Notes: a model not told the origin generated them from the sequence alone. A stretch of 62,410 nucleotides of DNA, filler included, from Stramenopiles sp. TOSAG23-2 (GCA_900128395.1; 6 parts of 6 records of this genome joined end to end with filler, not necessarily neighbours in it), one strand, 5' to 3'. Positions 3,001 to 60,182 are shown, counted from the whole stretch's first letter. Numbers and translations: made by a program.

Positions 3001-6000
3001 AAGGGCATGGACTCTGGTACGGAAACAAAAACATGGTGATTGGGCCGAAATGCGATCCCATAGTAGTGTATTACGAAATGTCTTACATTATCAAGAATTA
3101 AGAGACGATCTTACGCAAGCAGTGTTTTACTACGATACGAAAAGTCCTGTTGGTCAATGCAGCTGGAAAAAACCAGATGAACTGTGGGAATATGAAAAAG
3201 TTGAACGTGGGAGGCAAATTGTTAAAAATCAACCTCCAGAAGATTGGTTAGATTTACGCTTACGAGCGCAAGAAATTCGTCGTATTAAGCGTTGGTTCGA
3301 GTTTCGTGAACCAGATACCGGGATGACGTTTTATTTTAATGATGATACAGAAGAAAGCAGTTGGGAAAAGCCAATTGAAATAATTGATTACGATGCTATC
3401 TCAAGGGGTTGGCAGAGAATTTTGAACGAATCGAAGGATGTGGAAGAAACTCACCTTGATGGTAAGTGGGAAGAAATTATCGAGGATAGATTTGGGGCAA
3501 CGTTTTATAAGAATACAAAGGAACTTCGTTGTGCAAAATTACCATTTTGTCAATGGGCTAAACCACAAGACATCATTGATGTAGAAGATGCTGAGCGACT
3601 TAAAATTAAATTGAATAGACCGATTGCGCTATGTGAAGAATTTATCTCCGATGTCACCAATTGGACGAGAATTTTACAGCGTAGCAAAAAAATTCGAAAT
3701 AAGCCGTATCTAAACAATGGTTGGGTAGAATACTTTGATGATTACTCTGGGATTCACTTCTTTCATAAAGAAGATCAACTTGGTCAAAATAATCCATACT
3801 CAGATAGCATAGAGCTGAAGCAAAATTCTTTAGACGGTGGTGGTAGCGGATTTAAAGGAATTGGCCAAGCATCATCGATTGCGGAGGTTCAGGTTTCTTT
3901 CGTTAAACCACACGCATTTCGAAAATACGATCGGAAAATGTTCTTTTGGGCTACTCTCATTCGACGCTCGATAAAATTACGCACGTTTACACAGAAAGGC
4001 TGGACGGAATACGTGGATACGCGGTTGAACGATTACTTTTATGTTCATGAGAAAGACGAGTTGCGTTCATGGAAAAAGCCGAGTGAAATTTTGAAAGATG
4101 ACGAAGATGAGGCATGGGAGGTAATCATTGCTGATGTAGAGCAGGTCTTAGGTCATGAGCAACGTGGTCCTAGTGGTTGGAAAGTTATGAGACACAAATT
4201 ATCTAAGCAACAAGTGTATCATCACAAACATCTAGGTTGTACATGGATTAAACCACAAGCAGTAATTGATGATAGTAGGGCGTTACAGCGTAAAAAGAAA
4301 GAATTGGAAGACTTAGAAAGAAGGAGCAAGACTTTAGAAAGGGATAAAGCAGATGCAAAAAGAATCGGTGGGTACCTAGCCCATGCCAAGAAAATTAAGG
4401 AAAGCATCGTATTAGCTAGTGAAAATTTGCTAGATGACAATTTTGAAAGTGATCAAGAGGATGATGACGAGGATATGACACAAGAGGAAAAACATTTGTT
4501 AAAATTAAAACGAAGGCGTGAACGTTTAGCGTTAGTGTTGGAAGAAGATGATAGATTAAGAAGAAATAAAAAGAAAAAGAAAAATATGACGCGTAGAAAA
4601 CGCCGTTTAGGGGAAAGGTTGGCTCATTCAAAACAATTATTATCAGAAATCCATTTATTTGTTGAAGAAGCCACAGAAAGAAAGAATTTGGGATTTCAAA
4701 TATGTACATGGGGTTGTGGTGAGTGGCTATTGATGGCGGAGCAAAAGCATCATGTGGCAAATACTTGCCCCAAGCGGATGCTGCCTTGTAATTTGAAGTG
4801 TGGACTCTTTCTTCGAGCTGAATTTTGGGATTGGGCTGGAACTAGGGAAACACATGAAGAAAATGAATGTGTCAAAAGAAAGGTCATGTGTCCACAAGGT
4901 TGTAAAAAAGCGGTTGTGTTTGAAGATTTGGAAGTTCATTGTCAAACCCAATGTGCAAAAAGACGTATTCCACCATTGCATTGTCGTCTAGATTGTGGTA
5001 TGGTGTGGATTGGCGGTATGGATAGGTACAAAGCTATGTTGCAGGAACGAGAAGAGCATGAGAAAGAAGAATGCCAAGAAAGAATTGTCCAATGTGATTG
5101 GGTCAATATCAAGAAGGATAACATGCGATGCATGGCAGAGGTTAAAGCTAAAGATCTTCGAGCACATCGACAAGAACATGTTAAAACATTTGGTATCAGT
5201 TATTTCAGAGTACATGGTGGGCATTCTTACAAAGTTCCACGTAAGACGAAAGAGTTAAAGTTTCAACTATGGGGAGGTGGTGGCGGTGGTGGGCATTTAT
5301 TTGGTAGTAACGGTGGTGGTGGAACCGGTGGGGGTGGTGGTTATATTGAGGGTATTTTAAAAGTAACACCTGGAGAAACACTAGACATTGTTGTAGGAGC
5401 TGGTGGTGATGGTGGTGTTCACGGAACATTAATTCCAAATAAAAATTCGTTGGCAGAAGCTAAATACGATATGGGTATTGCATATGGTGGTGAACCTGGT
5501 GGCGGTAATGGATATGCATCCAATGGTGCATGGGCTGCTGGTGCTGGAGGAGGATTTACTGCAATTTTTCGAAATGGACCATGGGGCAAAGAGACTATCC
5601 TTGTCGCTGGTGGCGGCGGAGGTGGTGGTTCAAGAAATGGTTGTCCAGGAGGAGGATTTGAAGGTGGCCAAACGGCTGATGATCCAAGAAATGGCAAAGG
5701 CGGTACACAACTTGAAGGTGGTGAAGGTGGCCATTTTCCATTAAATGAAAATTGGTCCTGGGATGGCGATGAAAATAATATTATAGGTAAAGAGGGTGGG
5801 CAATGGCAAGGTGGACATGGATCAATTTTTGGTGCAGGTGGTGGAGGTGGTTTCTTTGGTGGTGGTGGTGGTGGATCAACACCAGGTATTGTTGGTGGCG
5901 GCGGTGGTGGTTCGTCTTACGCAAGTGACGCTGTTAAGCATGTTGTAACTTTAATTGGTGAAGTTGATCAGCCAGGTGGTATGAATAGAAAACCACCAAC

Positions 6001-8149: not shown

Positions 8150-9919
8150 ATGACGGAGGAAATATCAAATGAGTTCCTATCACCCTTTGGTGATATTGAA
8201 ATTGTGGAAAGTGATGAAGAGGAAGTCAAAGAAATACCATATACAGATTATGGTTTTACAAGTGAAGAGTTGGAAACGGCAATAAAAGTATTGAAATGTC
8301 TTGCTGTTGATAAGGAATTAAAATTATTTAATGAGCGCCGGGTTAAACCTTTGAGACAAGCATTGATTCCTTTGCTCGGGGAAATGAGCTCTAGATTTCC
8401 GGTAAATCCAGACAAATTGGCAAGGAGGAAAGAAGCAAAGGCAATAAAAAACGCTAGGAAACAACGTCAAATGAGGCAAGATGCACAATACATTGATGCA
8501 TCAAAACTACGTGCGAAACGATTATTAGAGTTACAAGCGTTACAAAAAGGCGATGATAATGGCGTTCGTCTATTAGTTCCAGATGGCGCTGTAGTTGAAC
8601 ATGTAAATATTAATAATACGCTAAATGATATCAAAAATGATAATGATATCAAAAATGATAATGATGATGAGAACTTACTTATTCGACCACGCTCATGTTA
8701 CACCTGTAAAGTACGATATTATAAATTACACCATTTTTACGATCAATTATGCCCTGCATGTGCAACATTAAGTTATGAAAAGCGGTTGCAAACTGCTGAT
8801 CTAAGAGGTAAAATTGCATTGGTAACGGGGGGACGTGTAAAAATTGGATTTCAAATTGTATTGAAATTATTAAGAGCTGGTGCACAAGTTATAGTAACGA
8901 CACGTTTTCCAAATGATTGTGCAAGACGATTTGCTGACCTTGATGATTATGATCAATTTTATGATCGAATTTCAATTTTTGGACTTGATTTTAGATACAT
9001 ACCTGGTGTAGAGAGATTTTGTGGATATTTATGTAACACATTACCAAGATTAGATATAATCATAAACAATGCATGCCAAACTATACGACGACCACCAGCA
9101 TATTATAAGCATTTAATGAATGTTGAAAGAATGCCAAGAGATGAAATGCCAAAGCAATGGTTACCAATGTTGGGAACCAATCCTACTCAATATATTAATA
9201 ATGGCTCAACAACAACAACAACAATTGATAATAGCTCTACCAAAAAAACATCATCCATTCAGGCATCATCGTCGTCATTGTTAGGGATGAAACACAACAA
9301 AGAATTTGGCATTTTATCAGCACCAGAGATGAGCCAAATTCCTTTAATGCAAGAAGATAATGATACAGCATCGTTTCTAACGGAAAATTTAGATGTTAAT
9401 CAACAACAAATTGATTTAAGAAAACATAATAGTTGGCTTTTGAAATTAGAGGAAGTGAATACGCCAGAATTATTAGAATGTGTCTCTGTTAATATGATGA
9501 CCCCATTTATTATTAATTCTCGTTTAAAGAAATTAATGTGTAAAGAAATATGTCTCCATTTAAATAAATTCATTGTCAATGTGAGTGCAATGGAAGGAAA
9601 ATTTTATCGATATAAAACACCAAATCATCCTCATACAAATATGGCAAAAGCGGCAATTAATATGATGACACGAACTTCATCAGAGGATTATGCTAAATCA
9701 AATATATTTATGAATTCTATTGATACGGGTTGGATTAATGATGAAAATCCATTGGAAAAAGCAAGAAAAATTTTTGAAGAGAGTAATTTTCAAACACCTA
9801 TCGATGAGATTGATGCTGCTAGTAGAGTATTAGATACCGTGATGACAGGTGTAAATATGGGGATTGGATTATGCCCATATGGTAAATTTTATAAAGATTT
9901 TAAAGAATCAGAGTGGTGA
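8150..9919 (+). CDS. SDR-family oxidoreductase with N-terminal CxxC...CxxC zinc-binding module
   Basis: CYTCK...LCPAC; ALVTGGRVKIG; IIINNACQT; NVSAMEG; HPHTNMAKAA; DTGWI. Start placed at the ATG at 8150 (track start 8090). Confidence 0.85.
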   Translation: MTEEISNEFLSPFGDIEIVESDEEEVKEIPYTDYGFTSEELETAIKVLKCLAVDKELKLFNERRVKPLRQALIPLLGEMSSRFPVNPDKLARRKEAKAIKNARKQRQMRQDAQYIDASKLRAKRLLELQALQKGDDNGVRLLVPDGAVVEHVNINNTLNDIKNDNDIKNDNDDENLLIRPRSCYTCKVRYYKLHHFYDQLCPACATLSYEKRLQTADLRGKIALVTGGRVKIGFQIVLKLLRAGAQVIVTTRFPNDCARRFADLDDYDQFYDRISIFGLDFRYIPGVERFCGYLCNTLPRLDIIINNACQTIRRPPAYYKHLMNVERMPRDEMPKQWLPMLGTNPTQYINNGSTTTTTIDNSSTKKTSSIQASSSSLLGMKHNKEFGILSAPEMSQIPLMQEDNDTASFLTENLDVNQQQIDLRKHNSWLLKLEEVNTPELLECVSVNMMTPFIINSRLKKLMCKEICLHLNKFIVNVSAMEGKFYRYKTPNHPHTNMAKAAINMMTRTSSEDYAKSNIFMNSIDTGWINDENPLEKARKIFEESNFQTPIDEIDAASRVLDTVMTGVNMGIGLCPYGKFYKDFKESEW

Positions 9920-10086
9920 AATAATGCATCATATACATGTAGTTTGACGTATAATTTAGCAGAGAATAAATTGTTCCATTTTAAATATTTTAAATATTTT
10001 AAAATATGATACGAGTACGTACGAACTATATATTACGCTCGTGTACATATATATACTTTCGTATATATTTATGATGGTTAAAATCT

Positions 10087-10125
10087 AAGTTATAATAATT
10101 TTACACTTCTCGTGTTAAGTAATAT
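10087..10125. repeat. Dispersed repeat, second copy at 19238-19276 on another contig
   Basis: AAGTTATAATAATTTTACACTTC(T/C)CGTGTTAAGTAATAT, one mismatch between copies. Confidence 0.8.
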
Positions 10126-10325
10126 ATATGTGTGCGCCTAATATATCGTATTCGTATAAAAATACGATAAAAATTATGGTGCGCGGTAAATTATAAAATT
10201 GATACTCGTAATATCATATATGTCTATATATACGTATACGAAGTATTATTTTCTCTTATACTCATATCATATTATATTATATAAATTTCTTTTACTCCCG
10301 GAAATTAACATCTCAAATCATATAT

Positions 10326-10425
10326 NNNNNNNNNNNNNNNNNNNNNNNNNNNNNNNNNNNNNNNNNNNNTTAATTAATTAANNNNNNNNNNNNNNNNNNN
10401 NNNNNNNNNNNNNNNNNNNNNNNNN
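10326..10425. other. Artificial contig linker
   Basis: 44 N + TTAATTAATTAA (stops in all six frames) + 44 N. Confidence 0.99.
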
Positions 10426-10713
10426 TGGACGAAAATTCGATCCATTTAACACTAATAACAATGAATGGTACGCACTTTAATTATAATTATTATAATACCA
10501 GGTAAAGTTACTGTAAGCTGCTATAAGCTGCTGGGGCATCACACAGTAGAGGCTAGAGGCAGCATCATCACATGAAAACATGAAAACATATAGAAACAAA
10601 TATCAAAAAACAACAAAAAAGATATGATATATGATTGTTCCCCATATTACTACTTAGATATAATATGAATAAATATTGTTTTCAAACGGTTTCAGTATTA
10701 TTATGTCCCAGGT

Positions 10714-11342: not shown

Positions 11343-13130
11343 ATGACGTCGGCTTTGAATCGAAGATTGTATCTGTACAAAAACTTTATACGACTCTCAT
11401 CACTTTCTTCTTTTCCACTCTCCGTCGAATCTTCTTTGCTGGTTTGCACCTTTTTTAAATGAGTTGAAAAATTATAAAGATATATGTAATATGTATGCCC
11501 ATGTAGCTTTCCACCGTTTGTTTATTCCATATATTAGAAGACTACCACCAGTGATACAATAAGATCAGAATTAATAATGCAAGTCCATCCAATCCAATCC
11601 CATGTTGGATTGACGGGAAAAGAATTTATTGGATTATCTTCACCACGTACAATTACAATAATAAATAATAAATTAAAAGTAACAAATGTTCATGTAGTAG
11701 AACTGGGAGAAAGTTCAAAAACATCATATGCGTGTTTAACAAATACCATATTAAGAAGTTTAAAACTAACGTCTGCTCCTTTAATGTTGCCACCACAATA
11801 TATAACTACATCGTTTTCAACACCTATTTCATGTATTTTATTAAATGAAGAGACAAAGGAAACCATGGAACTTAAAAATTCTACCTTTCGCTTACAACGC
11901 CATATTACAATGGAATTAAATATTGCTAAAAAGAAAAATTTGAAACAGAAACAATTAGTTGCTTTTAAAATTTCATCTCCACGAAATACCACAACTTATT
12001 GCGATATTGTTGTGCTTCCTCAAAAACGTAATGATGATGACGGTGATACAACCATACATGTATATATGGATACAGATGAAGTCAATAGTTCTATGTATAA
12101 AGATGCTTTATCATATGATTTATATATTCAAAGTGAAGTTCAACATGATAATTTATTAATGAATTTTACTCCAATAATGCATGTTGATACGATAATCGAT
12201 GATGGAAGAAAAAATGTATGGGATATTGAACAACAACCTAGGCCAAATAAACAATTATATCCAATTGCAAATGAAACTGATATTGTTGAAAATATTCATT
12301 TTCAAAATCCATCATCAGATATTAATGTAAAAGATGCGGAGTTGACAATTGATACAAGTAATAGACATTTACATCTATCACCAGAAGATTTATCAATATT
12401 GTTTCCAGGGAAAAAACTTCGTTTAAAAAAAGCAGTTGCATATATTCCTGAATTCATTGCAAAATATACTGGATTTGCAGCAAAAGAAACAGTGACTATT
12501 CGAAATGTTGAAACTGGAGATGAGATAAGACATTTAAGAGTGTTAGGTCCAGTACGTAAACGTACTCAAATTGAACTTGCATATACAGATTGTTTAAATC
12601 TTGGCGTTGAAGCACCTGCACGTATCTCAGGTGATAATGTCAATTCAGGTGCAAAATGTATATTAATAGCTGAGGATGATGATGGTAATTTAACAAACAA
12701 CCAAGTAGAATTGAAATCTGGTATTGTCCGTGCATGGCGACATTTACATATATATGAAGATCCAATTGCAGAACGATTAGGCGTTGTTTCAGGTGATTTA
12801 TTAACAGTTGGTATAAAATCACCAAAAAATACAACAATTTTTCATGATGTGTTAGTTCGAGTTGGAAACGATCCAGATGGTGTTCCTGGCTCTGGATTTG
12901 TTTCGAGTATAATTTCTTATTTAAAACCAACATTATTGGCATATGGTTATCCAGCATTACGTTTTGTTAGAGGTACTGGCGATGCAATGTATATACATTT
13001 AGATACAGATGAAGCAAATGCTGCATGTATAGGGAATGCAACTAATTATACGTTATATCAACAAATTGGAAAAGAAAAATTACGATTGATTGGTACTACA
13101 CGATTGGAAACTAAAGAATCGAAAATGTAG
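11343..13130 (+). CDS. pduL: PduL/PTAC-family phosphate acyltransferase with degenerate N-terminal duplicate. Predicted exons 11343-11441 and 11538-13130.
   Basis: SNRHLHLS, FAAKETV, RVLGPVRKRTQIEL, RISGD, AWRHLHI, FHDVLVRV and HLDTDEANAA match PduL. The 517-aa ORF (11577-13130) is open upstream to a TAG acceptor at 11535-11537; phase-0 donor CTG|GTTTGC at 11442. Exon 1 is less certain than the domain call. Confidence 0.85.
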
Positions 13131-14525: not shown

Positions 14526-15083
14526 TATATCTCTCTCGTTAGTTATTCAAATATATATAAAAGAGTTTATAATGTTCTCTACTGTTTAAATAGATATTGA
14601 ATCTACTTCTCTTTCTATATATTAACAATTCGTATTGATATAATAGAATATATAATTATTATTCAATCGGATTATAGTTAGAATATAATAGTATTATAAA
14701 TATTATATTTGAAACGTGCAAAAATCAATCATCAAAAATGTGCACTAAAATGTGTGTACGGAATGTATAATTATCTGAGCTCCCAGAGATGCTACTTGTA
14801 TTATTATAGTGCTATACCAGGTATATTATAAGGTCATTGGTTATTTATTTTTGTTGATACCAGATAAGTATATGGTTGCATAGTCTAGCTATGCGTTGCC
14901 TATATCTAGATAGGGATCAAACAAAAGCCAAACCAAACTAAAACTGAATTGCACAATTGTTATTATTTACATTATGATATGTAATAGTATATATAGATAT
15001 AACAGACTATATATATATTTCAACATTGTATGTATGTAAAGATATATATACATAGATAGATAGATAGATAGAGATATTGTATT

Positions 15084-15326
15084 ATGTTTTTGTCGAAAGT
15101 AATACTATGTGTTACCTTGTTGTTGAATGGATTGAGTTTGATACGATTAGAAAATAATAACAATGCAATAAATAATAATAATAATCCAATTGTTAAATAT
15201 ATACAACAAAATATATCAATAGACATAAAGAATAAACTACGTACTTTAAAAGCTTTTCATAATATAATATTGGTATTGAATGTCGCTGTCGTCTTTTTGA
15301 TTCTGATCGGTTATATAGTGATATAA
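15084..15326 (+). CDS. Small membrane or secreted protein (tentative)
   Basis: 80 aa with N-terminal and C-terminal hydrophobic segments and an Asn run typical of host proteins. Confidence 0.3.
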   Translation: MFLSKVILCVTLLLNGLSLIRLENNNNAINNNNNPIVKYIQQNISIDIKNKLRTLKAFHNIILVLNVAVVFLILIGYIVI

Positions 15327-15929
15327 TATAAATTTACGTTTTATATTTATATATATATATATATATATATATACTTTGTGTAATTTAGCGTATGATATTT
15401 TTCATGTTCACATATCTTACATTTTCAATCATAATAGATTTAAGAAATAAATACTCGTAAGAACAATGTTGGAGAAACAGAATACGTGCACGTACATTTC
15501 ATAAAGAATTGCACACATATCTGCATAAAAATTTTTAAACTGTGTATATAATATATATTTTATATATATATTATATGGTCTACTCGTAATTTATAATATT
15601 TTTACCTTTTTGTACGCGAAACAATTTTAATATTTTATAAATATATACGGTCTCTCGTATATATATTTTTTTACAATACACACACACGATTACAAAATCA
15701 TATTTTATTTCAAAAATTATTTTTCTTCTCTGCTATAAATGAAATAAATGATAATGATAACTTTATAAAATATATTTAATTGAAAACCGCACTGTATCTC
15801 ATATATTATACGACACGTATAATATATATACGTATGATACGTTCTTTACAAAATGTCACATTCTTCGTTATTTCACTCCACATATACGAGAGTATATATT
15901 ATATATATGTGTGTATGTAAAAAAAATCT

Positions 15930-16835
15930 CTAATCTTTAATAAATACTTTTGGCCTACTAAATATATTGATAGCATCTTCTATCTCTTGAATTTTACGTT
16001 CCAAATTTGCTTTTTTTCTGATAGCACTTGGTGTTTCCACTAACAACGGCATACGTTGTAAATGATCTTTTGTAGCTGCTAAATTGTCTTTTAATATTTT
16101 TAATGTATCAAGTCTTTCCTCCTCTGGCATTAAACTCATACCTGCAGGTGCTTTTTTATTTTCCTCTGCACGTCTTTTTCTTGCTGCATCCTCTGCCATT
16201 TCAGCTTTACGCTCCTGTAAATACAATGGTACTTTACCATAGTTATCACCACTTTTTTGTATGCCAGCATTTGCATCTTCATTATCTTTTTTCTTTGGTG
16301 GAGATGAGGTAACAGCTTCACGTCGATTTTCTGCTATAAAATTTTTTTCTTGTCTTGCTGGCATAGTAATAACTTCACCACGTTTTGGAACAGCTGGTTT
16401 CCGTGTTTCTCGGTTGTTACTACTTTTGACTGGAGAATGACGAGTGTTTTCACGTGCTTTTGCAATTCTTTGCTCGCGAATACGTTTGTTTTTTTCTGCT
16501 AGTTTTGCTTTCTGTTCTTTACGTTCCGTTCTCATACGAGCTGTTTCTTTTGCAATTTCAGATGCTTTCTTTGAATCATTTTGTGCTACACGTGGTTTCA
16601 CATCTTGAAAACGTTTCATTTTGAATTTTCTTGGCTTCGCATCTGCTTTTTGTTGCCTTCGTTCTCTGTTCTCTTGCTGTTTCTCACGCAAAATTCTTAT
16701 ATTTTCCCGTGCATGGTTTCTAGGCTCAATACCTCTTCTACGTTGTACATCTCGTATACCACGTACTGGGTTCATTAAATCACCAACTGCTGAACCTTTT
16801 TTATTATATTTCCTTGCTATCCTTGATGCGTCCAT
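15930..16835 (-). CDS. ENKD1: Enkurin domain-containing protein (ciliary/centriolar)
   Basis: NHARENIRILRE; YGKVPLYLQERK; MPEEERLDTL; IEDAINIFSRPKVFI. Confidence 0.85.
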   Translation of the reverse strand: MDASRIARKYNKKGSAVGDLMNPVRGIRDVQRRRGIEPRNHARENIRILREKQQENRERRQQKADAKPRKFKMKRFQDVKPRVAQNDSKKASEIAKETARMRTERKEQKAKLAEKNKRIREQRIAKARENTRHSPVKSSNNRETRKPAVPKRGEVITMPARQEKNFIAENRREAVTSSPPKKKDNEDANAGIQKSGDNYGKVPLYLQERKAEMAEDAARKRRAEENKKAPAGMSLMPEEERLDTLKILKDNLAATKDHLQRMPLLVETPSAIRKKANLERKIQEIEDAINIFSRPKVFIKD

Positions 16836-20747: not shown

Positions 20748-20847
20748 NNNNNNNNNNNNNNNNNNNNNNNNNNNNNNNNNNNNNNNNNNNNTTAATTAAT
20801 TAANNNNNNNNNNNNNNNNNNNNNNNNNNNNNNNNNNNNNNNNNNNN
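20748..20847. other. Artificial contig linker
   Basis: 44N-TTAATTAATTAA-44N. Confidence 0.99.
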
Positions 20848-27360: not shown

Positions 27361-28714
27361 TTACAAGTCATAATTAAAAGTATCAAAAGAATCACCCCAC
27401 ATTGATTTTATTAACTTCTTCTGTTCATCTGTTAAATTCCTACTTTTTGTGCTTTTCTTGTAACCTTTTAAGGAATCAAGATATTCAACAACACGTTGTT
27501 TCATACCTGATTCGACAAAATCATCCCAATGAAAATGCGAATAAATATCTGTAAGCTTCTTCAATGGATTTTTGTTTAATTCATCAAAAGAAAGTTCAAA
27601 TAAATTTTCTTTTGGTATTAGTTTACGATCACGAACGTAATTTTTATATAATGTTTGATATTGCCAAATTATGAAATCAATCACCTCCTCATTTGTTGGT
27701 GTATTTAAATAACTATACCAATATGCGGTATCAGCCATCCTAGCAGCAGAGAGGAATACATCGTATGGGTTCCGGTGTATATATATGAATTTTGCATTTG
27801 GAAATAATTGATACAATAATTTTACGCGTCCAGTATGTACTGGTGATTTAATCAACAATGGTTTAGATTTTGCAGTTCCATCCCACGTATTTGTGTATCT
27901 TAATGTTACTTTTTTCATCAGAAACAAGAAGGATTCCAACCATAGCTTTTGCTCTTGCTTTGTACCACCATTTTCAAAATTAATGTAATTGCGATATTCT
28001 TTTTCATTTTTCATAAATACAATTGGCTGATAGTAACTGGTACCCTTTGACAAAACATTGACTCCTAGCTCATCTTCTTGTGGGGAGTCCTTTAATGCGT
28101 GATGCAATATAGGAGAAAGAGGGAGTGTTATGTTAGAAAAAATTCTCCATAAGAGGTTTCGGGAAAGAGAATTTACATACCAACGTCAACGCCATATTAT
28201 CCATTGGGCGTTTATTATCAACAACATTCTTCAGATATACTTTGAAACGTTCTAATAGCAAAAATCCAGAAGGAAAACCTGCTTGAAACGTGTTTGTATA
28301 AGCAAATTTTGAATCTAACGATAGGAGATTAAATAAATGTGTTGTGCCAGTTCTTGGATGACCTAAAATAAACACGGGCCTATCATTTAACTCTTGACGT
28401 TGAATAGCTTTACCATAGATAAAATGTTCTATGCTTGAAACAAATGAGTTATTAATAGACATAATTGTAATAAACAAAAGCCTCGGCCAATATGTGGCAA
28501 ATTCAATATCGTATTTTCTACGCCAAAGTACAGATAACCATGCAAATAATGTTATTCCAGATAAAATATTATTTTTTGTTTCCATTTGGAATTTAGGTGT
28601 AAAATTGTAAATTGAAGCTGATCTATCCTCAGGTTGTTTTTTCTTAAAAATAACAATAGATATTATTGTTGTTACAACAAGTGTTGCAATAATATATCCA
28701 TATTGAAGTTCCAT
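27361..28714 (-). CDS. Sulfotransferase (P-loop, Sulfotransfer_3-like) with N-terminal TM anchor. Exons 28714-28181 and 28089-27361.
   Basis: PVFILGHPRTGTTHL, KSPVHTGR, FIYIHRNPY. A 91-bp intron (GTATGT...CTAAC...AAG) joins RPMDNMALTL to DSPQEDE in frame. Confidence 0.88.
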
Positions 28715-31168: not shown

Positions 31169-31268
31169 NNNNNNNNNNNNNNNNNNNNNNNNNNNNNNNN
31201 NNNNNNNNNNNNTTAATTAATTAANNNNNNNNNNNNNNNNNNNNNNNNNNNNNNNNNNNNNNNNNNNN
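31169..31268. other. Artificial contig linker
   Basis: 44N-TTAATTAATTAA-44N. Confidence 0.99.
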
Positions 31269-41587: not shown

Positions 41588-41687
41588 NNNNNNNNNNNNN
41601 NNNNNNNNNNNNNNNNNNNNNNNNNNNNNNNTTAATTAATTAANNNNNNNNNNNNNNNNNNNNNNNNNNNNNNNNNNNNNNNNNNNN
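41588..41687. other. Artificial contig linker
   Basis: 44N-TTAATTAATTAA-44N. Confidence 0.99.
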
Positions 41688-41688
41688 A

Positions 41689-44600
41689 AAAAAAGGATCT
41701 ACTGGCCGTAAATTTAATTATGGTAGAGGCAGAAGTCCAGGCCACCCATCAAGATCTAATGGCAGATTTACATCAAAACCAAAAATAAAAAAAGGATCTA
41801 CTGGCCGTAAATTTAATTATGGTAGAGGCAGAAGTCCAGGCCACCCATCAAGAAGGAAACCTGCAACGAGTAAGCCAACATCTACATATAGAGGCAGAAG
41901 TCCTGGTCACCCATCAAGAAGGAACCGTGCAACGAGGAATCAAGTAGATAAAAATGGTAACGCAGTTGAGCAAACAGCTGGATATGGTAGTATAGCTAAG
42001 GATGCGGCAAAAACGTATGGTAAAATTAGAAATACCAAGCCAGTCAAAAAAATTCGAAAAAGTTTGTGGGACCGTACGAAACATAAATTGAGCAAAGTTA
42101 AAAATAGTAAATTTGTTCAAGGTGCTGCTAATGGAATAAAAACTACTGGCAAATATATTAAGAAAAATGCAAAACATGTTGCGCGAGCTACGAAACTTGT
42201 TACTAAACATGGTGGGAAAGCCCTACGTGTCGGTGGGAAAGTATTAGGTGCGGCTGCAAATGTCGTTGCACCAGTTGTTGGATTCGGAAAAGGAGTATTA
42301 AAACCTGCAGGTAGTTTTAGTGAAAGAGTAACTAATGGTATTGTTGGTGGTGCAAAGAAATTAGATAATGCTGGAGCTGGATTTGCTGGTGCTTATACAG
42401 GTGGTAAACTCGGAGCTGGTGTAGGAGGTACCGTAGGAACAGCATTTGCAGGTGTTGGTGCAGTACCTGGTGCAGCTGTTGGAGCATTTACGGGAAGCGT
42501 TGTTGGTGGAATTGCAGCATCAAATAAATACGATGGCTCAAATGCAGATAAAGCGTACGATAGGATGATTGAAAGCAAAAGAGGTGCTATCCACAAGAGA
42601 GTGGAAAAGAATGTAAATCGAGTAAAAAATGCTGGTCGAAGTGTGAAAAAGTTTTTTACTGGAAATGGAAAACGTAGCACGGGAAGTAGAGGTAGGAACA
42701 GAAAAAGATATTCAAGAAGTCCTGGTCATCCATCACAAATGAAAAGTCAAAATACACGTGGTAAACTAAAATCAAATAGGAATACAAATAGTAGGAAATA
42801 TTCAAGAAGTCCTGGGCATCCATCACAAATGAAAAGATATTCAAGAAGTCCTGGTCATCCATCACAAATGAAAAGTCAAAATACACGTGGTAAACTAAAA
42901 TCAAATAGGAATACAAATAGTAGGAAATATTCAAGAAGTCCTGGGCATCCATCACAAATGAAAAGATATTCAAGAAGTCCTGGTCACCCATCAAGAAGGA
43001 ACCGTGAAACGAGGAATCGAGTAGATAAAAACACAAGAGACAATGCGCGATATAATAAAATGCGAATGGGAAGAGGAAAAAGAACACCAACAAAAAAAGA
43101 TCCAAGAGACAATGCGCGATATAATAAAATGCGAATGGGAAGAGGAAAAAGAACACCAACAAAAAAAGATCCAAGAGACAATGCGCGATATAATAAAATG
43201 CGAATGGGAAGAGGAAAAAGAACACCAACAAAAAAAGATCCAAGAGACAATGCGCGATACAATAAAATGCGAATGGGAAGAGGAAAAAGAACACCAACAA
43301 AAAAAGATCCAAGAGACAATGCGCGATACAATAAAATGCGAATGGGAAGAGGAAAAAGAACACCAACAAAAAAAGATCCAAGAGACAATGCGCGATACAA
43401 TAAAATGCGAATGGGAAGAGGAAAAAGAACACCACCAATCAGCAACGATCAAGTTATTATTGGCAATACAAATATTGAAAGTTCAGATCCACGAGATGAT
43501 GTAACAGATCAACCAAAGAAACTTTCTGAAACGGAAATAAATACGCTTGCAAGTAGTAAGGCGAAACGTGATCAAATGTTAAATATGAGGGAGCATATGG
43601 AAGTAGCACAGCAAGATGAAACATTTTATACTGATGCTATTTTACGTAACCAACAACAAAAATTAAAAGTAGAGGAAAAGGAAATGTTTGATAAACTTGG
43701 TTATGATGAAGATCAAATCGCGGAGTATAAATTAAAGGAGAAAGCGAGATTTAGACCTACGAATAAGAAATACAATCCATCCTCTAAAAATACAGACCCT
43801 CGTAATAGTATCACTCCACATGATCGAGCAATGTCATTAGCATCACAAAATGCATATGAAGGTCATAACCAAAGAGTTGGTGATAGGTTAGAAAAAGAAT
43901 ATAGTGACGGATCAAAAGTAATTACGGATTATGAGGTTGTACAAGCTACTAGAAGCATTACAGTATATCGAGATCGAGTAAACAATAAGGTGTTAATTGC
44001 AGTCAAGGGTACTACACCAGCATTGAATTCTGATATGACAGATGCTAATTTGAAAATAGCAATGGCATCAAATAATTTTGATGAATCCAAAATAGTAAAA
44101 CAAGCGCAAGCTGCATTAGATCAATATGCTGAAAAATATCCAGATGCAGAGATAGAAATGACAGGCCATTCTTTGGGTGGAACTGTTGTGCAACATGTGG
44201 CAATGAAAAATCCTGACAAAGTTACGTATGCTACAGCATTTAATCCCGGCTCGAATCCTATTTTACATAGGGAGGAAGACGAACTTGTTGGGCAACATAC
44301 AAATATAAGAACAGTTATACAAAAAGGATCTTTTATAAGCAATGGGCAATTGGGTGTCGCAGATGTTGTATTACCTGATCCACTTGATGCAGCATCAAAT
44401 AGGAGAGAAAGGAGGGAGGCAATAAAACACAGTATACTTACCAAGCATGGCCAAGGTAATTTTTTATGCCCAGAATGTGAAAATAAATGGAAAGATTTAG
44501 ATTTCCCAACAAGTAATGATGAAACACATGCATTAACTCATGATCAACGGGCTCAATATGATGAATTAGTTAAAGCGAAAGAGAAGACGGAAGGCCTTTT

Positions 44601-52000: not shown

Positions 52001-52100
52001 NNNNNNNNNNNNNNNNNNNNNNNNNNNNNNNNNNNNNNNNNNNNTTAATTAATTAANNNNNNNNNNNNNNNNNNNNNNNNNNNNNNNNNNNNNNNNNNNN
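52001..52100. other. Artificial contig linker
   Basis: 44N-TTAATTAATTAA-44N. Confidence 0.99.
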
Positions 52101-53329: not shown

Positions 53330-54202
53330 ATGAAAGTGTTAGTGACAGGCTCTGCGGGCAGAGTAGGGCGTGCAATATATATTAAGTTAATGCACACCCA
53401 TCAAGTCGTAGGTTTAGATAAAACACCATGCTCAACCGCAGATTATGTTGGTGATATTCGGGATCAAGCGTTGATCCAGCAAGCCCTTGAAGGAGTAGAA
53501 GTCATCATTCATACCGCAGCCTTACATGCACCGCACGTTGGGTTGTTACCTGATGAAGAGTTTCAATCCATCAACGTGGATGCCACAGAGCAACTAGCCC
53601 TTGTGGGCATTAAACTGGGCGTAAAGCAATTTATTTTTACTAGTACAACGGCACTGTATGGCTATGCATCTACTCCCGAACACACCGCAGGGTGGGTGAA
53701 TGAGCAAATTAGACCGCAGCCAAAAACTGTGTATCATCGCAGTAAGATTGCAGCAGAAGCCAGGCTCAAAACCATCTCTGATGGCTTGGGATTACCTGTG
53801 ACTGTATTACAAATGTCTCGCTGTTTCCCAGAACCTGCCGACTTAATGGCGGTATATCGACTCACTCGGGGCATTGATGCGCGTGATGTTGCGAGTGCTC
53901 ATTTAGCCGCGTTAGAAACCTGTCTTCCTGGGTTTAATCGCTTTATTATTTCAGGTAAAACCCCGTTTGAAAAATCAGATTGTCCGCGTTTATTGAATGA
54001 CGTCGATGGTTTAATACAAGCGAAGGCACCTGAACTTGCCAAGGTGTTTTTAGAGCGAGGCTGGTCGTTCCCCAACCAGCTAGACCGAGTATATGATTCT
54101 TCTTTAGCTCAACAAAAACTCGGTTGGCAGCCAAAATATGGCTTTGACTCGGTTATAGACATGCTAGATGCTGAGCTGGCTGAGGTTTTACCTATTATTT
54201 GA
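53330..54202 (+). CDS. NAD-dependent epimerase/dehydratase (extended SDR), bacterial-like
   Basis: TGSAGRVG, IHTAALH, FTST, YHRSK. Intronless, visibly higher GC than neighbours, no low-complexity inserts. Confidence 0.9.
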   Translation: MKVLVTGSAGRVGRAIYIKLMHTHQVVGLDKTPCSTADYVGDIRDQALIQQALEGVEVIIHTAALHAPHVGLLPDEEFQSINVDATEQLALVGIKLGVKQFIFTSTTALYGYASTPEHTAGWVNEQIRPQPKTVYHRSKIAAEARLKTISDGLGLPVTVLQMSRCFPEPADLMAVYRLTRGIDARDVASAHLAALETCLPGFNRFIISGKTPFEKSDCPRLLNDVDGLIQAKAPELAKVFLERGWSFPNQLDRVYDSSLAQQKLGWQPKYGFDSVIDMLDAELAEVLPII

Positions 54203-54477
54203 TCAGTATAATAGTGTAAATATAAATTAAAAAAAAACAACAACAACAAAAAGAAGAAGCAAAGATCAATTTTTGAAATGCCATCATGCTGCCAAGCTGA
54301 TGCCATTGCAATGCCATATTGTAAATATACCTTAATAATACCTTAAACAATTTTTGTAAATATAATTTTGAAAAAAAATAATTTTGTAAAATTTTTTTTT
54401 TTTTTATTTTTTTTTTTTATTTATTTATAATAAATATAAAATATAAAAATATATATATATATATATATATATTTATA

Positions 54478-54758
54478 TTATAAAGCTAATGCATTATAAT
54501 CTTTTTTCTTTTTATGCACAGGTGGAAATCTAACCTTGTAACAAGCCAAACATATACAATATTCACACATATCACAGTAATATAAATGATCATCACCTGG
54601 TTTCTTGTTATCAAATAATAGACTGCCCTTACAATCATCACAATCATAAGCTAAATTATATGTATCCAAATATGTTTTTGTATTAGTTAATTTTGTCCAT
54701 TGTATAAATTGAGCACAACATGGACTATTATTATCACCACCATTAGTATTAGCTGTTT

Positions 54759-54790
<32 letters not shown>

Positions 54791-55407
54791 GAATTCATTA
54801 CATTACTATCACTACCACTTGAAATAGAACCACCACCATTATCATTATTACTACCACCAATTTTATTAATACTATCACCATCAACATTATTATTCCTGCC
54901 ACTACTAATACTACCACCATCAACAGAACTACTTTGCATCTTCCTTCTTTTGTTCAATTCTATTGTTGCTTTTTGTGTTTTACTGTAGAACCTTTTCTGG
55001 TTGTGGTAAAACTTTCTCAAATATTTAAATTTGAATGAATGATATAATGATATTGCAAAATTTCTGACATTCCTTAGCTCTTTATTTTGCATTTTATTGA
55101 TGAAGTCACTTAATGATGGTCTGTCCTCTAACACAACAGTGGTAAATTTTTCTTTAAAAAATTGAAATGGTTCAGAGTACATTACTATAAATTTCCATAT
55201 TTGTTTTTTCTCATCTGAAGTACTCAATTTTTTATTTATAGTTAAGTTGTCATTTTCAATTTCATTATAGTTTGCAATAATACAAGCCATATATGATTCC
55301 ATTTGCTTCTTCAGCAGTTCAAAATCCTGCCCATCATGTTCCAATTGTTTTAATGTTAATGTTCTAATGATATTGTCTGTTCCATATTTTTCTTGCACAA
55401 TCATCAT
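54478..55407 (-). CDS. Hypothetical protein with C-terminal ZZ/DC1-like zinc finger
   Basis: 309 aa; YDCDDC...YYCDMCEYCICLACY. Confidence 0.7.
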
Positions 55408-55744
55408 TATATATATAGATCAACTATTTGATCTATATATATATATATATATATATTAATATTTGTATGTGAAGTATATTTATATATTATATATAATATA
55501 TAAATATATATATATTATATATTACAGGCACATAATGGGCAACAAAAAAAATATATATATAGCATGATAATACCACACACTAAACAAATTTTAATTTAAA
55601 AAAATAACTGTCAAAATGTGCAAATTACTGTTAAATATATATAGAACCAGTCAACTTTTTTGAAATGGCATTTTATTGGCATGTAATTGGCATTTTAACA
55701 GCATCAGGAAATTCCCATTATAATTCAATTTTATTTTTTTTACT

Positions 55745-56128
55745 AAGTTAAAAAAAAGAAGCCCAAAGTACAACATATTGTATACTTTTGATAGGCAAAT
55801 TCAACTCACTGGTTGTTTTTTATTTTTCACTCACTCCCTAAAAAACATTGTCAATATTTTAAACACTATTGTTAATATACTTACAAGCATATTACCTATA
55901 TATAGAATATCAAATAAAAGCACAATATAATGTATATAATAATAATGGCAAGTTAAAAAAAAGAAGCCCAAAGTACAAAATATTGTATACTTTTGATAGG
56001 CAAATTCAACTCACCAGTTGTATTTGTTTTTTATTTTTATATTTTTTTTATATACTCAAGTTAAAAAAAAGAAGCCCAAAGTACACAATATTGTATACTT
56101 TTGATAGGCAAATTCAACTCACTGGTTG
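55745..56128. repeat. Three 71-bp direct repeats with an internal near-palindrome
   Basis: Copies at 55745-55815, 55950-56020 and 56058-56128; core AAAGTACACAATATTGTATACTTT. Confidence 0.92.
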
Positions 56129-56311
56129 TATTGTGGTTTTTTATTTTTATATTCACTCACTACTTGAATATTTTGCATTTACAAATAAATATATAATATA
56201 TATATATATATATAATATATGTATAGATATAGATAGATAAATATATTTATAAATAATATAATAGAGAGATAGATATATATATATATATATATCTATGTAT
56301 ATAAGAACAAA

Positions 56312-56752
56312 ATGGATACTGTATATGAAATTGGTGATTTGGTCTTATATCAGAATAAAAAAGGAGAAGTAGTTGAAATAATAAATGGAATAACAACAAC
56401 ATTTATTAAAATTGATTATGGTATATATAGAAAGTATAGAAAAACAATGATTGTTCCTATTTGTGATAAATCATTATCACAAATAGAAAAGAATCACCTG
56501 GACATGTTAGATGTCCTAACATCTGATGTAGAAATGCTGGTATGTGCTATAGAAGATGTAATAATAAATGCAAAATCATTGTATAAAGACATATATGATA
56601 TTCACACTCATGCAAAATCATTGTATAAAGACATATATGATAATCATTCTAATAATTATAATAAGAATAATATTACATATAAAAAATACTGTTTTTACAA
56701 AGAACAAATTTATATTGTATATGAAGAAGTAAAATTGTATATGAAGAAGTAA
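56312..56752 (+). CDS. Small hypothetical protein with an SH3/KOW-like beta-rich N-terminus; may be an exon of the next gene
   Basis: YEIGDLVLYQNKKGEVVEI; the 3' part consists of local duplications. Confidence 0.45.
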   Translation: MDTVYEIGDLVLYQNKKGEVVEIINGITTTFIKIDYGIYRKYRKTMIVPICDKSLSQIEKNHLDMLDVLTSDVEMLVCAIEDVIINAKSLYKDIYDIHTHAKSLYKDIYDNHSNNYNKNNITYKKYCFYKEQIYIVYEEVKLYMKK

Positions 56753-56766
56753 AATTTTTAATATAT

Positions 56767-59664
56767 ATGTATATCATATCAGTTTTTTTAAATAATATTT
56801 TTTTTGTATATGAAGAAGTAAAATTTTTAATATATATGTATATCATATCAGTTTTTTTAAGTAACATTTCAGCTGATGATGATGGGTGTGGTGGTGATGT
56901 GGTGATGGTTTCAGATGATGATGATGGTTGTGGTGATGCATGTGATACATGTGGTGGTATATGTTCATGGGAACATATACCACCAGCTATATTACGTGAG
57001 AGTATATTAAAAAATTTAATTAGTTATATGTCTCATAATAAAGTTATATTTAATTCTGCTGATCACAAAAAACAAATTGTTTTTGAGCTTGCTGATTTAT
57101 TTAAAATTTTCATGCAGCATCAACCAACCCATGCACTGTTTAAGGCAATTTTAACACACAATCTTCATGCATCAAAAACCTTAAGAGGCCTTTTGAGCTT
57201 GAATCAGTTGTTTGATTTGTTGACAAAACATGTTCCAGCAGAATTTAAGATCCCTGTTTCATTTATGCTAGATGGTGTGGCAGTATTAAACATTGAATCT
57301 GCCCTTGATGATTTAGCTGAGAAGAAACCAGAAGTGAAACAAACATTGAAGGAGTACAGGGAATTAGTACGTAAAGCACAGGGTGTTAGGACAACTGAGA
57401 TTGATACACTAATAAAAGCATTACTAAAAATTAAATTATTATTCTGGTATGATGATTATGCAAAAAACAATGTTGATAATCGTAATACCATTATGCAAAT
57501 GGTATTAGCCTTGTATCCTGATAGAGATAATGATACTTCCATGGCAGAATTTTATGCTTACAAGCATTTCTATTCCCTATCAACAGGTTACTCAAAAAAT
57601 GATAAAGGGTTTAATTCTGCAATGAAAAATATCCTGAAACAGTTCAAAGAACTTGAAGAGATTATTGAGGTTGTGCCTATGATGGATGGTATAGCCTTTT
57701 ATAAATTTTTTGGCATTTCTTCCACAAAAAGCCATGTAACAAAATATCGGGGAAAATGGACAAATTTGCAAAAAAATCCAGAATTTCTACCATGCAATAG
57801 CAGGCACAATGAACGCATGAAAGATGTCATCTCCAAATTGGGCACCCCTACTTTTGACATTAACAATAGCAACCATAATCAATTATGCAAATGTGGGTGT
57901 TATGATTTTGAAGTAGATGATTTAAAATGGAAACAAGCACCTTTATCAGATCATACTGTGCCTATTGCAGCCTGGGAGACTGTGGGTACAGCATCACTAA
58001 CATCAGAGTTTTTTATGGATAAAATAAGTACAATGCTTAATGCTGTTAAAGCTAAAAATAATAAAGGACGATTTGAGCAATTTGGTAGGGATTCTGGTAT
58101 AAGTGGTACAAATATTGATAGACTCTATAAAATGCTTGAAATATCTGATGCACTTAAAAAAGCACAAGAAGAAGGTCTTGATACAACAGATCTTGAAGCT
58201 CAATTTAAGGAAGTTGATATTACATTTATGTATAAAGATCGAGTACCTGGTATACAAGGAAGTATAGTTGGATGGATGCATTGCTGCCTATTTGGAGGAG
58301 GAAAATCAGGCATTTTAGCAATGATATTAATATTTTACAAGAAAGTAGCAGTATTGATAAAACAAAAATGCGAAAAATTATCAAAATTAGGAATCAGTTG
58401 GTTGAAAGCAATTAAAGGGAGTAATGTTCACGGAACATTTGCAATATTTCAAGCAGATGAAATTTTAACAATTCTTTATTTCTGGTGTTTCATAATGCAG
58501 GAACCAGAGAATGATGAACATGAAAGATTGAGAAAAATATGCTACCTACTCACGTCAATATATGGAGCAACAACAGCAGCATCTGAAGCAGCACCATTGA
58601 CATGGCAACGTCATGAATTAACAAAAGGTTTTTTGGGTGAATTTGATTTGATATTTGATCATGGTCGAAAAACAGGTACCTTAAACAACCATTCAAAAAC
58701 AGGTGCTTATGCATTCAATAAGCAGCGTGATATTAAGGTAAAGAGAGTTACTTGTATCTCACGGTGGTGGAGAAAAAAAGTTAGGGATAAAAAAAGGGAC
58801 TTTTTTCGTAACCAATGTAACAACTATGAAACAGATGATAGGGATAAACGTACTTTCCGACGTAATTTCCGAAAATATCTCTTAGCTGAGGATACAAAAA
58901 TACAAGACTTTTGGCAAAATTGGCAAGATCCAGCAACCCGTCGCGGAAAAGTAGAAGAGATTAGGAACTTTATACAGGAAAAGGCAGCACAAGGTGATTA
59001 CAAAAGTGGATACAAATTTTTTTTCTCAGAACGAGCTAATCATCCAATGTTTTTGGCTGCTGTAAATGATTATCGATATATTGAGGGAAATGATCGGGTA
59101 TTCGAAGGATACATAAGAAAAGTTAAACAATGGGCAAAACGGGCAAATACAGGATCTGATAACTGGCCACAGCATGTCCAGGACAAATATCATCTTTTAC
59201 AGAAACTGGATTTTATCTATCTTGAAAATGATGAGGATGATGGAAATACAAGCCGAAAACATTACAAACAAGGGAAAAAATTTGTTAATAATGGAACATA
59301 TGAGGATATGGATTTTATTTCAGGATATTTTGATAGAGAAAGAAATAAATTTTTTGCTTTGTACCATGATGGAATTAAGGTTGTGTCACCATTGGTTATT
59401 AATAATAAAGCGTTTAGTTTTAACATAAATCCAAATTTGTTTGGAGTGCAAGCAGAAATGGATATAATTACACCTAACAGTTCTGGAAAAATGAGATTGG
59501 GGAAAGAGGGATACGAAGCGGTAATTTTTGTAAAAACTTGGGAGCAATGCTATGTCTGTGTTACCCGACGATTAAAATTATTAAAATTGGACAAGGATAA
59601 CCAGGACCATTTTGAGTTTGTAGAGTTTTATGAAGGCTGTTGTGAGTTTTGTGTGTATAAATAA
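56767..59664 (+). CDS. Large orphan protein (~920-965 aa); true start uncertain (ATG at ~56905 or spliced)
   Basis: 2.9-kb uninterrupted ORF in AT-rich DNA; Cys clusters CGDACDTC, CKCGC, CCEFC; the first ~33 codons derive from a local duplication. Confidence 0.8.
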   Translation: MYIISVFLNNIFFVYEEVKFLIYMYIISVFLSNISADDDGCGGDVVMVSDDDDGCGDACDTCGGICSWEHIPPAILRESILKNLISYMSHNKVIFNSADHKKQIVFELADLFKIFMQHQPTHALFKAILTHNLHASKTLRGLLSLNQLFDLLTKHVPAEFKIPVSFMLDGVAVLNIESALDDLAEKKPEVKQTLKEYRELVRKAQGVRTTEIDTLIKALLKIKLLFWYDDYAKNNVDNRNTIMQMVLALYPDRDNDTSMAEFYAYKHFYSLSTGYSKNDKGFNSAMKNILKQFKELEEIIEVVPMMDGIAFYKFFGISSTKSHVTKYRGKWTNLQKNPEFLPCNSRHNERMKDVISKLGTPTFDINNSNHNQLCKCGCYDFEVDDLKWKQAPLSDHTVPIAAWETVGTASLTSEFFMDKISTMLNAVKAKNNKGRFEQFGRDSGISGTNIDRLYKMLEISDALKKAQEEGLDTTDLEAQFKEVDITFMYKDRVPGIQGSIVGWMHCCLFGGGKSGILAMILIFYKKVAVLIKQKCEKLSKLGISWLKAIKGSNVHGTFAIFQADEILTILYFWCFIMQEPENDEHERLRKICYLLTSIYGATTAASEAAPLTWQRHELTKGFLGEFDLIFDHGRKTGTLNNHSKTGAYAFNKQRDIKVKRVTCISRWWRKKVRDKKRDFFRNQCNNYETDDRDKRTFRRNFRKYLLAEDTKIQDFWQNWQDPATRRGKVEEIRNFIQEKAAQGDYKSGYKFFFSERANHPMFLAAVNDYRYIEGNDRVFEGYIRKVKQWAKRANTGSDNWPQHVQDKYHLLQKLDFIYLENDEDDGNTSRKHYKQGKKFVNNGTYEDMDFISGYFDRERNKFFALYHDGIKVVSPLVINNKAFSFNINPNLFGVQAEMDIITPNSSGKMRLGKEGYEAVIFVKTWEQCYVCVTRRLKLLKLDKDNQDHFEFVEFYEGCCEFCVYK

Positions 59665-59667
59665 ATG

Positions 59668-59950
59668 AGATGGCATCATAATGGCATGATAATGGCATTT
59701 TGTTGGCATTTATATAAATATGTTATCATTTATTTCAACGTGTTTTCTAAATATTACTTAATATCTCTGTTTTGGCATTAAAATGGCATTAAAATGGCAT
59801 TGTAATGGCATTCCATGGCATCAAGTTGGTCTTTTTGAAAAAAAAGTGTTGTAAGTTTTACAACAACAATAAATGCCATTATAATGCCATTATAATGCCA
59901 TTGGAATGCCAATACAATGCCATATCTACCTTAATTTTACCGAATGCCAT
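59668..59950. repeat. Opposed arrays of TGGCAT and ATGCCA (10-11-bp period) forming an imperfect inverted repeat
   Basis: TGGCAT arrays at 59668-59822; ATGCCA arrays at 59872-59950. Confidence 0.85.
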
Positions 59951-60182
59951 ACAGTTTCATACTGTAATAATTAAAAATATTATATCTTCTTTCTTCAAAT
60001 AAATAATAAAGCACTAAAAAAAAAAAATATAATAATTTATTATTATAATTGGACTATGATATATATTTATAAAATAATGAGTATGTCACATATGTTGCAT
60101 ATCCTGATATTTATATCTATCTATCTGCAAAATACAAAAAAACATCTCAAGTTTATTTGATCGATCCCACTTGCAGGAACAA

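Follow-up and report, generated by a model that had tools for sequence, protein, structure and literature searches.

CpG loss in a candidate mobile element of an uncultured stramenopile, and its possible origin in methylation-type decay

What leaves 2.8 kb of DNA without a single CG dinucleotide when CG is frequent in the DNA around it? The question is raised by a locus in Stramenopiles sp. TOSAG23-2 (GCA_900128395.1), from which we analysed one stretch of 62,410 nucleotides (nt), filler included (hereafter the window; six parts of six records of this genome joined end to end with filler, not necessarily neighbours in it). The CpG-free tract overlaps an island with three open reading frames (ORFs), which is a left-truncated copy of an unclassified terminal inverted repeat (TIR) element. 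A second copy, L001, is a locus of 6595 nt and was the single find of a scan of Joint Genome Institute (JGI) metagenomes with one protein query. That the island is a mobile element whose family has undergone CpG decay of the methylation type has, in our estimate, a probability of about 0.5. If so, base composition alone reveals CpG methylation, or an equivalent mutator, that is aimed at a mobile element and spares genes. The features on which the argument draws are listed below, with lengths of proteins in amino acids (aa).

Features of the island, in window coordinates:
54152–56994: CpG-free tract, 2843 nt, C=348 and G=338 (24.1% GC), 0 CG against 41.4 expected
54258–59966: island, 5.7 kb, left-truncated copy of an unclassified TIR element; homology to L001 from 54258, right terminus at 59966
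54278–54317, minus strand: inner portion of the heptamer array at the left end, three exact copies of ATGCCAT (as read on the plus strand) with an 11-bp phase
54478–55407, minus strand: T309, ORF of 309 aa with a Cys-rich C-terminus and poly-Thr/Asn runs, 0 CG
55408–56311: divergent intergenic region with (TA)n tracts and a TGGCAT 11-bp array at 55666–55697, 0 CG against 9.3 expected
56312–56752, plus strand: T146, ORF of 146 aa, 0 CG; homology to a 158-aa ORF of L001 is limited to its first ~60 codons
56495–56935: rearranged segment, 441 nt with tandem duplications (units of 42, 69 and 42 nt), against 1206 nt in L001
56767–59664, plus strand: T965, ORF of 965 aa, putative transposase, family unassigned
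59665–59966: right terminal region with ATGGCAT arrays at 59670–59698 and 59783–59821 and inverted ATGCCAT arrays at 59873–59950, 2 CG (59739 and 59941) against 6.8 expected
59944–59966, minus strand: TIR tip, 23 nt, reverse complement of L001 780–802 (plus strand)

CpG content of the tract and its surroundings

The whole window contains 1443 CG dinucleotides. Its largest CG-to-CG gap measures 2845 nt, from the CG at 54150 to the next one at 56995, and the runner-up measures 540 nt. When the expectation for the tract was adjusted to the host, 37.6 CG were predicted, and the Poisson probability of finding none is 4.5e-17. Host segments of the same length (186 overlapping windows of 2843 nt, free of N) showed ratios of observed to expected CpG (o/e) between 0.69 and 1.22. 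The preliminary description of this DNA had reported that no CG occurs from 54152 to 56994, that the 309-aa ORF lies wholly inside CG-free DNA, and that CG is frequent elsewhere, AT-rich DNA included. All three statements were borne out by the counts, the last of them by 71 AT-rich host windows of 500 nt (GC ≤0.27), in which CpG o/e was at least 0.50 and had a median of 1.03.

Chance or base composition, that is, AT-rich DNA with few CG, would be the simplest explanation, and the 24% GC of the tract speaks for it. It was refuted by the tract's own C and G content, which predicts the 41.4 CG given above, and by the Poisson probability. AT-richness does not cause the absence of CpG, since in AT-rich host windows the ratio never falls below 0.50, and we regard the probability of this explanation as negligible. 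The possibility named in the preliminary description, a CpG o/e within expectation for the local composition, is thereby ruled out. At the opposite extreme, two intergenic segments of 22–24% GC elsewhere in the window (9501–10500 and 15001–16000) have CpG o/e values of 1.9–2.0.

The depletion is specific to CpG and ends at the edge of the island. Upstream of the tract, CpG o/e stands at 0.91; it falls to 0.23 (9 CG) at 56995–58500 and reaches 0.76 (75 CG) beyond 58500. For the whole island, 35 CG were counted against 117.2 expected (o/e 0.30). TG and CA together occur 381 times in the tract against 314.8 expected at the host ratio, and their combined o/e of 1.465 lies above the host range of 1.08–1.39 in the 186 windows (TG 1.47 and CA 1.46 separately, host 1.21). 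This surplus of 66 is no smaller than the deficit of 37.6 CG and so covers the CpG loss. GpC is not depleted (o/e 1.38), and TpA o/e in the tract is only 0.98 against 0.88. The comparison of CpG o/e with the excess of TpG and CpA, which the preliminary description had proposed, thus gave within the window a CpG ratio far below the host range and a TG/CA ratio above it.

Codon positions and the second copy

To ask at which sites CpG is missing, we took 22 pooled host ORFs as reference. In these ORFs, CpG is spread over codon positions 1–2, 2–3 and 3–1: NCG makes up 12.8% of NCN codons, junctions of a third-position C with the G of the next codon (C3–G1) reach 0.88 of expectation, and 55% of arginine (Arg) codons are CGN. 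T965 contains 33 CG, 25 of which belong to Arg CGN codons (codon positions 1–2). Counts for silent CpG and for Arg codons are as follows.

T965, whole: silent CpG 8 against 44.9 expected (P=1.5e-11); Arg CGN 25/44 (57%), host fraction 0.55
T965, 56767–58368 (5' 1.6 kb): silent CpG 0 against 25.0 expected; Arg CGN 7/14
T965, 58369–59664: silent CpG 8 against 19.8 expected (P=0.002); Arg CGN 18/30
T309: silent CpG 0 against 11.5 expected; Arg CGN 0/10 (10 AGR)

All seven CGs at 56995–58240 lie in Arg CGN codons, and the first silent-site CG stands at 58371, so that DNA without unconstrained CpG extends over 4.2 kb (54152–58370). The preliminary description had seen CG stay rare to ~58500 and then recover as a gradient. 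This holds as a count; as a reading it does not, since the profile mainly follows the distribution of selection-protected Arg CGN codons. Most of the recovery beyond 58500 stems from Arg codons that cluster where the protein is basic. Taking codon position into account removes most of the gradient, and a weaker, genuine silent-site gradient persists toward the 3' end of T965. The same contrast between Arg CGN and silent CpG separates mutation from selection against CpG.

The three ORFs recur in the second copy with order and orientation unchanged. L001 4786–6595 aligns with window positions 56936–58745 at 98.8% identity (1810 nt, 21 mismatches, no gaps), and L001 1357–3579 aligns with 54258–56494 at 89% identity by gapped BLAST, or 93% over 2172 ungapped MAFFT columns. 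The homology begins abruptly at window position 54258, 55 nt past the stop codon of an epimerase ORF; L001 1–1356 has no counterpart in the left flank of the window island, and L001 1–779 is unrelated to the flanks in the window. CpG is depleted in this copy as well: 2 against 50.5 expected in the core, 5 against 16.3 in the outer TIR and 10 against 15.3 in the flank. Among the between-copy differences (147 in the left part and 21 in the right), only 2 involve CG in either copy. The CpG-free state is thus common to both copies site for site, indicating that it was inherited from the ancestor of the family and not acquired at this site once the copy had inserted. Judged from this comparison, the depletion long predates the insertion seen in the window, and the implication of the preliminary description that the footprint was acquired here has to be given up.

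Depletion also seems to be continuing. Random placement of the 147 substitutions over the left 2.2 kb created 6.98 +/- 2.45 new CpGs, and one was observed; one or fewer occurred in 0.65% of 2000 simulations. New CpGs are therefore under-represented among the copy differences, and the process is apparently ongoing. In addition, one R(CGT)-to-C replacement was found in a copy known as protein only, and near-identical protein fragments occur elsewhere (P0001, P0003, P0007 and P0008). More distant relatives (P0002, P0004–P0006 and P0009–P0012) are 35–48% identical. Divergence between the two DNA copies is uneven:

T309: dS 0.10, dN/dS 0.72, 88% aa identity
Central intergenic region: copies 98.4% identical
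T146: 49% aa identity, dN/dS 0.93
T965, part: dS 0.017, dN/dS 0.63

This mosaic of divergence, as far as two aligned copies can tell, points to recombination among family members.

Could CpG avoidance be intrinsic to the element? Selection may keep CpG out of the element, or out of a viral or episomal ancestor replicating elsewhere, as an escape from CpG-directed silencing or nucleases, or the composition may stem from a CpG-poor donor. The CpG-free state as a family trait of both copies fits this explanation, as does the scarcity of new CpGs between them, which selection would also give. Depletion in the tract is total, and typical methylation equilibria leave a weaker depletion than total loss. 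Palindromic, iteron-like modules such as those described below would suit a replicon. However, T965 keeps Arg CGN at the host frequency despite the one-step synonymous change from CGR to AGR, and selection against CpG as such therefore fits less well. A mutational route would account for the TG/CA excess. A recent foreign arrival is unlikely in view of the host-like codon usage and promoter tracts, and T309 and T965 have neither relatives in IMG/VR or among prokaryotes nor a match in PHROGs. On balance we regard intrinsic avoidance as rather unlikely.

A second explanation resembles repeat-induced point mutation (RIP): a system akin to a DNA methyltransferase (DNMT) or a deaminase would recognise duplicated DNA and mutate C in CpG directly, without stable methylation. 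The depletion is confined to multi-copy DNA, with a sharp edge where the homology between the copies begins, and the signature of CpG to TpG/CpA is present, both as such a system would leave them. However, RIP typically riddles copies with stop codons, and here three ORFs (309, 146 and 965 aa) are open and silent sites have been selectively cleaned, which would need many generations of selection between mutational hits. The TpA ratio, at 0.98 against 0.88, and the few transitions among the copy differences argue against it too. We hold this explanation to be improbable.

The best reading of the data is CpG-specific hypermutation of the element family under purifying selection. The lineage of the element would have undergone a long phase of CpG to TpG/CpA hypermutation before the two known copies diverged. 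Purifying selection would meanwhile have acted on the large protein, so that CpGs at free sites were lost and the Arg CGN codons of the constrained ORF were kept at host frequency. Changes from CGN to TGN or CAN alter the amino acid and would be purged by selection, and the synonymous change from CGR to AGR is a slow transversion; the less constrained T309 would have lost its CGN codons. Supporting this scheme, neutral CpG loss, host-level Arg CGN in T965, CGN loss in T309 and the TG/CA excess are together what hypermutation with purifying selection predicts.

The most likely cause of such hypermutation would be host 5-methylcytosine (5mC) targeted to the repeat family and followed by deamination. 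Deamination of 5mC is an established cause of CpG hypermutability. Passages of PMC12344493 document transposon-targeted 5mC in diverse protists, and a passage of PMC12582260 states CpG methylation with deamination as a cause of CpG loss from transposable elements (TEs) in vertebrates.

Element architecture, proteins and host setting

That the island is a mobile element is supported by its ends. The tip form TACAGTATGAAACYGYATGGCAT, which stands at L001 780 and nowhere else in that copy, has a single occurrence in the window, on the other strand (chance expectation 0); beyond the tip, similarity stops on both sides, which places the right terminus of the window copy at 59966. From the outside inward, the heptamers follow one order at the two ends, ATGGCAT and then ATGCCAT, at 11-bp spacing. 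We counted 32 exact ATGGCAT heptamers in the window, where 16.5 +/- 4.3 were expected, 16 of them within 54278–59950, and 26 in L001, where 2.8 were expected. L001 also carries an internal palindromic heptamer module at 3990–4100, directly upstream of the large ORF, so that motifs of the ends recur at a promoter; the window copy has lost this module. The heptamers are presumably binding sites for a protein encoded by the element. The element is a candidate for a new transposon family, and its putative binding-site architecture is clear. In the intergenic region between the divergent ORFs, a unit of 108–110 nt occurs three times (55718–56153, and L001 2828–3249), is 93–95% conserved in the second copy, and may belong to an enhancer or a promoter, or be targeted by a small RNA.

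Alignment of the two copies also shows the losses of the window island. Its left end is without the outer ~578 nt (L001 780–1356), and the 1206-nt segment of L001 that corresponds to the rearranged one comprises the internal heptamer module and ~200 N-terminal codons of the large ORF with a Cys/His motif. Compared with L001, the window island is thus a truncated and rearranged copy of an element that measures ~7 kb when complete. Two statements of the preliminary description are qualified by these results. The island had been called foreign or mobile: mobility gains support from the second copy with another left flank, the inverted tip and the heptamer arrays, and a viral nature does not, as no viral signal was found. 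The ORFs had been called intact: they are open, but the outer left end, the ~200 N-terminal residues and the internal module are missing relative to L001.

The proteins have few relatives. T309 had no homologue among 689 candidates, and its sole match is the L001 copy. For T965, a word-indexed search of 5.8 billion proteins returned two homologues, and exhaustive HMMER over 1.84 billion representatives returned 11, all of them fragments, ~87–97% or 28–49% identical. PHROGs yielded nothing for T309 or T965, and for T146 a weak match of unknown function (E=0.0085). Neither IMG/VR contigs nor 185,579 prokaryote genomes yielded a relative, which leaves a viral or bacterial source unsupported; five IMG/VR contigs that matched the heptamer-triplet pattern were rejected as unrelated (47–61% GC). 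The family-conserved motifs of T965 are LLFWYDDYA, MMDGIAFYKFFG and FAIFQxDEILT (FWYDD, MMDG and QxDE), and their spacing could correspond to a DDE triad. T965 is labelled a putative transposase because of the architecture of the element, not because of homology.

Several observations weigh against a methylation-decayed mobile element. Concerning the transposase assignment, Pfam gave nothing for the island ORFs at E≤0.01 or at E≤5, and a profile search of the PDB gave no match (best E=0.3). The nearest neighbours of T965 in the protein Atlas are weak (0.76–0.80) and are clusters with Transposase_21 (51% of members), Plavaka (19%) and RAG1, and AlphaFold2 models, with a mean predicted local distance difference test (pLDDT) score of 42.8 for the whole of T965 and 41.0 for residues 200–660, are too poor for fold comparison. 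The TIR is pieced together from two copies with one tip each, and the window copy is without its left tip. Concerning the decay, only two DNA copies are at hand and the substitutions between them are unpolarised. The left part shows 44 transitions against 103 transversions, that is, no transition excess, though no CpGs are left there to mutate. The between-copy dN/dS values of 0.63–0.93 indicate weak recent constraint. Silent CpGs are kept in the 3' third of T965 and in the terminal regions (2 against 6.8 expected at the right end in the window, 5 against 16.3 at the outer left end of L001), for which the model alone gives no explanation. Finally, 5mC in protists need not be CpG-specific: according to a passage of PMC12344493, all four dinucleotide contexts are methylated alike in Naegleria gruberi. 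A stronger version of the reading is in our view doubtful: the element would belong to an unclassified superfamily of eukaryotic DNA transposons, its neutral CpGs would have been purged by the host, and the tract would offer a first glimpse of a repeat-targeted, CpG-specific 5mC defence in a lineage of uncultured marine protists. Bolder still is the alternative that the element would remain active because, once CpG-free, it is beyond the reach of methylation.

Which genome does the island sit in? ORFs in the window encode eukaryotic domains (WW with ALK/LTK glycine-rich, RRM, Enkurin, tesmin-CXC with F-box, Maestro HEAT, RCC1 and Ephrin-receptor-like) and also several bacterial-type enzymes. 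All three stop codons are in use, and uninterrupted ORFs reach 2041 aa. Searches of Rfam gave no match in the window, and no tRNAs were found in it. The host is an uncultured, AT-rich, intron-poor and probably marine eukaryote with a gene of flagellar or ciliary type (Enkurin). Naegleria was considered as the host and rejected: the close relatives of the Enkurin protein (84%, 83% and 66% identity) are all metagenome proteins, and matches from named organisms begin at 46–49% over half its length. An Atlas search with the Maestro protein yielded no taxonomic signal. Of 21 sequencing runs listed, 20 contain part of the stretch and 2 at least half; they come from 14 studies, mostly of marine or seawater metagenomes, and the shares are mostly small. 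None of the listed runs that contain it is an RNA run.

An assembly chimera or contaminant would place the DNA of a CpG-poor organism next to host contigs, joined by the assembler or by whole-genome amplification. The two runs with the largest share of the stretch are very small (17–21 million letters), which leaves room for such an origin, and at the left junction the truncated element end meets a compositionally odd gene:

53330–54202, plus strand: ORF of 290 aa, NAD-dependent epimerase/dehydratase of the short-chain dehydrogenase/reductase (SDR) type, 46% GC, CpG o/e 0.84, outside the element

The best NCBIfam similarity of this ORF is HpnA/GalE-like, far below cut-offs. Measured as the correlation of relative synonymous codon usage (RSCU) with the host pool, Arg and CpG-containing codons excluded, its codon usage departs further from the host pattern than that of any other gene in the window (r=0.58). 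The ORF may have been acquired by recent lateral transfer, or it may mark an assembly joint. The genes of the island, however, are host-like (r=0.87 for T309 and 0.95 for T965, in a host gene range of 0.67–0.98), and (TA)n tracts stand just upstream of start codons in both island and host genes. Both features make a contaminant from an unrelated CpG-poor organism unlikely. Moreover, the island is bordered on either side, within one contig, by host-like genes, and a chimera would take two artefactual joins; its right tip stops sharply at 59966, and the DNA beyond is host-like with normal CpG. We therefore consider a chimera very unlikely.

Some further observations concern the host DNA in the window. 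In an ORF of 517 aa (11577–13130), the C-terminal half is a phosphate propanoyltransferase of bacterial-microcompartment type (PTAC/PduL, E=8e-47); the ORF has an N-terminal extension of ~250 aa, a eukaryotic gene context and codon usage like that of the host (r=0.95). N runs of 44 nt occur in pairs, 12 bases apart, with a period of ~10.4 kb (10326–10425, 20748–20847, 31169–31268, 41588–41687 and 52001–52100); they look like masking rather than assembly gaps, and one pair interrupts the 5' part of a beta-galactosidase gene of glycoside hydrolase family 35 (GH35). At 42656–43504, several ORFs of 153–260 aa overlap on both strands inside a lipase-like ORF of 1222 aa, which suggests an internal low-complexity or repeat region. 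A sulfotransferase domain extends over two adjacent minus-strand ORFs that lie 25 nt apart (27361–28714); a short intron or a frameshift would explain the split, one of the rare signs of introns in this stretch.

Comparison with known systems

How does the island compare with systems in which foreign or repeated DNA is marked or mutated? Endogenised giant-virus and other viral inserts silenced by 5mC are described in passages of PMC11244446 and PMC12210455. The island is like them in being a foreign-looking, AT-rich segment with orphan ORFs and a methylation-like footprint. A viral insert was rejected, however: the island has 5.7 kb, three ORFs, no viral hallmark genes and no relative in IMG/VR, and it shows the TIR and heptamer architecture together with host-like codon usage. 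RIP of the fungal type was rejected as well, with open ORFs that are not riddled with stop codons and the TpA ratio given above.

Among DNA transposons, En/Spm encodes a large protein and smaller ones and has long ends packed with short motifs in both orientations, some of them near the promoter. The element resembles En/Spm (CACTA, CMC superfamily) in its protein of about 1000 aa accompanied by smaller proteins and in its motif-packed ends, and Transposase_21 is a weak neighbour in the protein Atlas (0.78). Membership of CACTA/En-Spm is not supported: the tip begins TACAGTATG... (TACAGTATGAAAC...), which is not CACTA, and no Transposase_21 domain (PF02992) was detected at E≤5. Transib/RAG1-like and KDZ/Plavaka elements are likewise weak Atlas neighbours (0.76–0.77), and the spacing of the T965 motifs is possibly of the DDE kind; unlike members of these groups, T965 has no sequence match in Pfam or the PDB, and its models are too poor to compare. 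With no family match among those compared, the element, on its present description, is best called an unclassified TIR element.

For the footprint itself, the closest comparison is the CpG decay of methylated repeats in genomes whose bulk is not methylated, and 5mC on TEs and viral inserts in protists is described in passages of PMC12344493 and PMC11244446. Likeness extends to CpG loss confined to the repeat, an excess of TG and CA, near-normal CpG in the host, and CpG kept only where selection protects it. Unlike that decay, the loss here is near-complete in the core (0 against 41.4 in the window, 2 against 50.5 in the second copy) while the ORFs are open, and it is a property of the family ancestor and not the decay of one dead insert. 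CpG decay of methylated repeats is a known phenomenon, of which this locus would be a new and unusually clean instance in an unstudied lineage.

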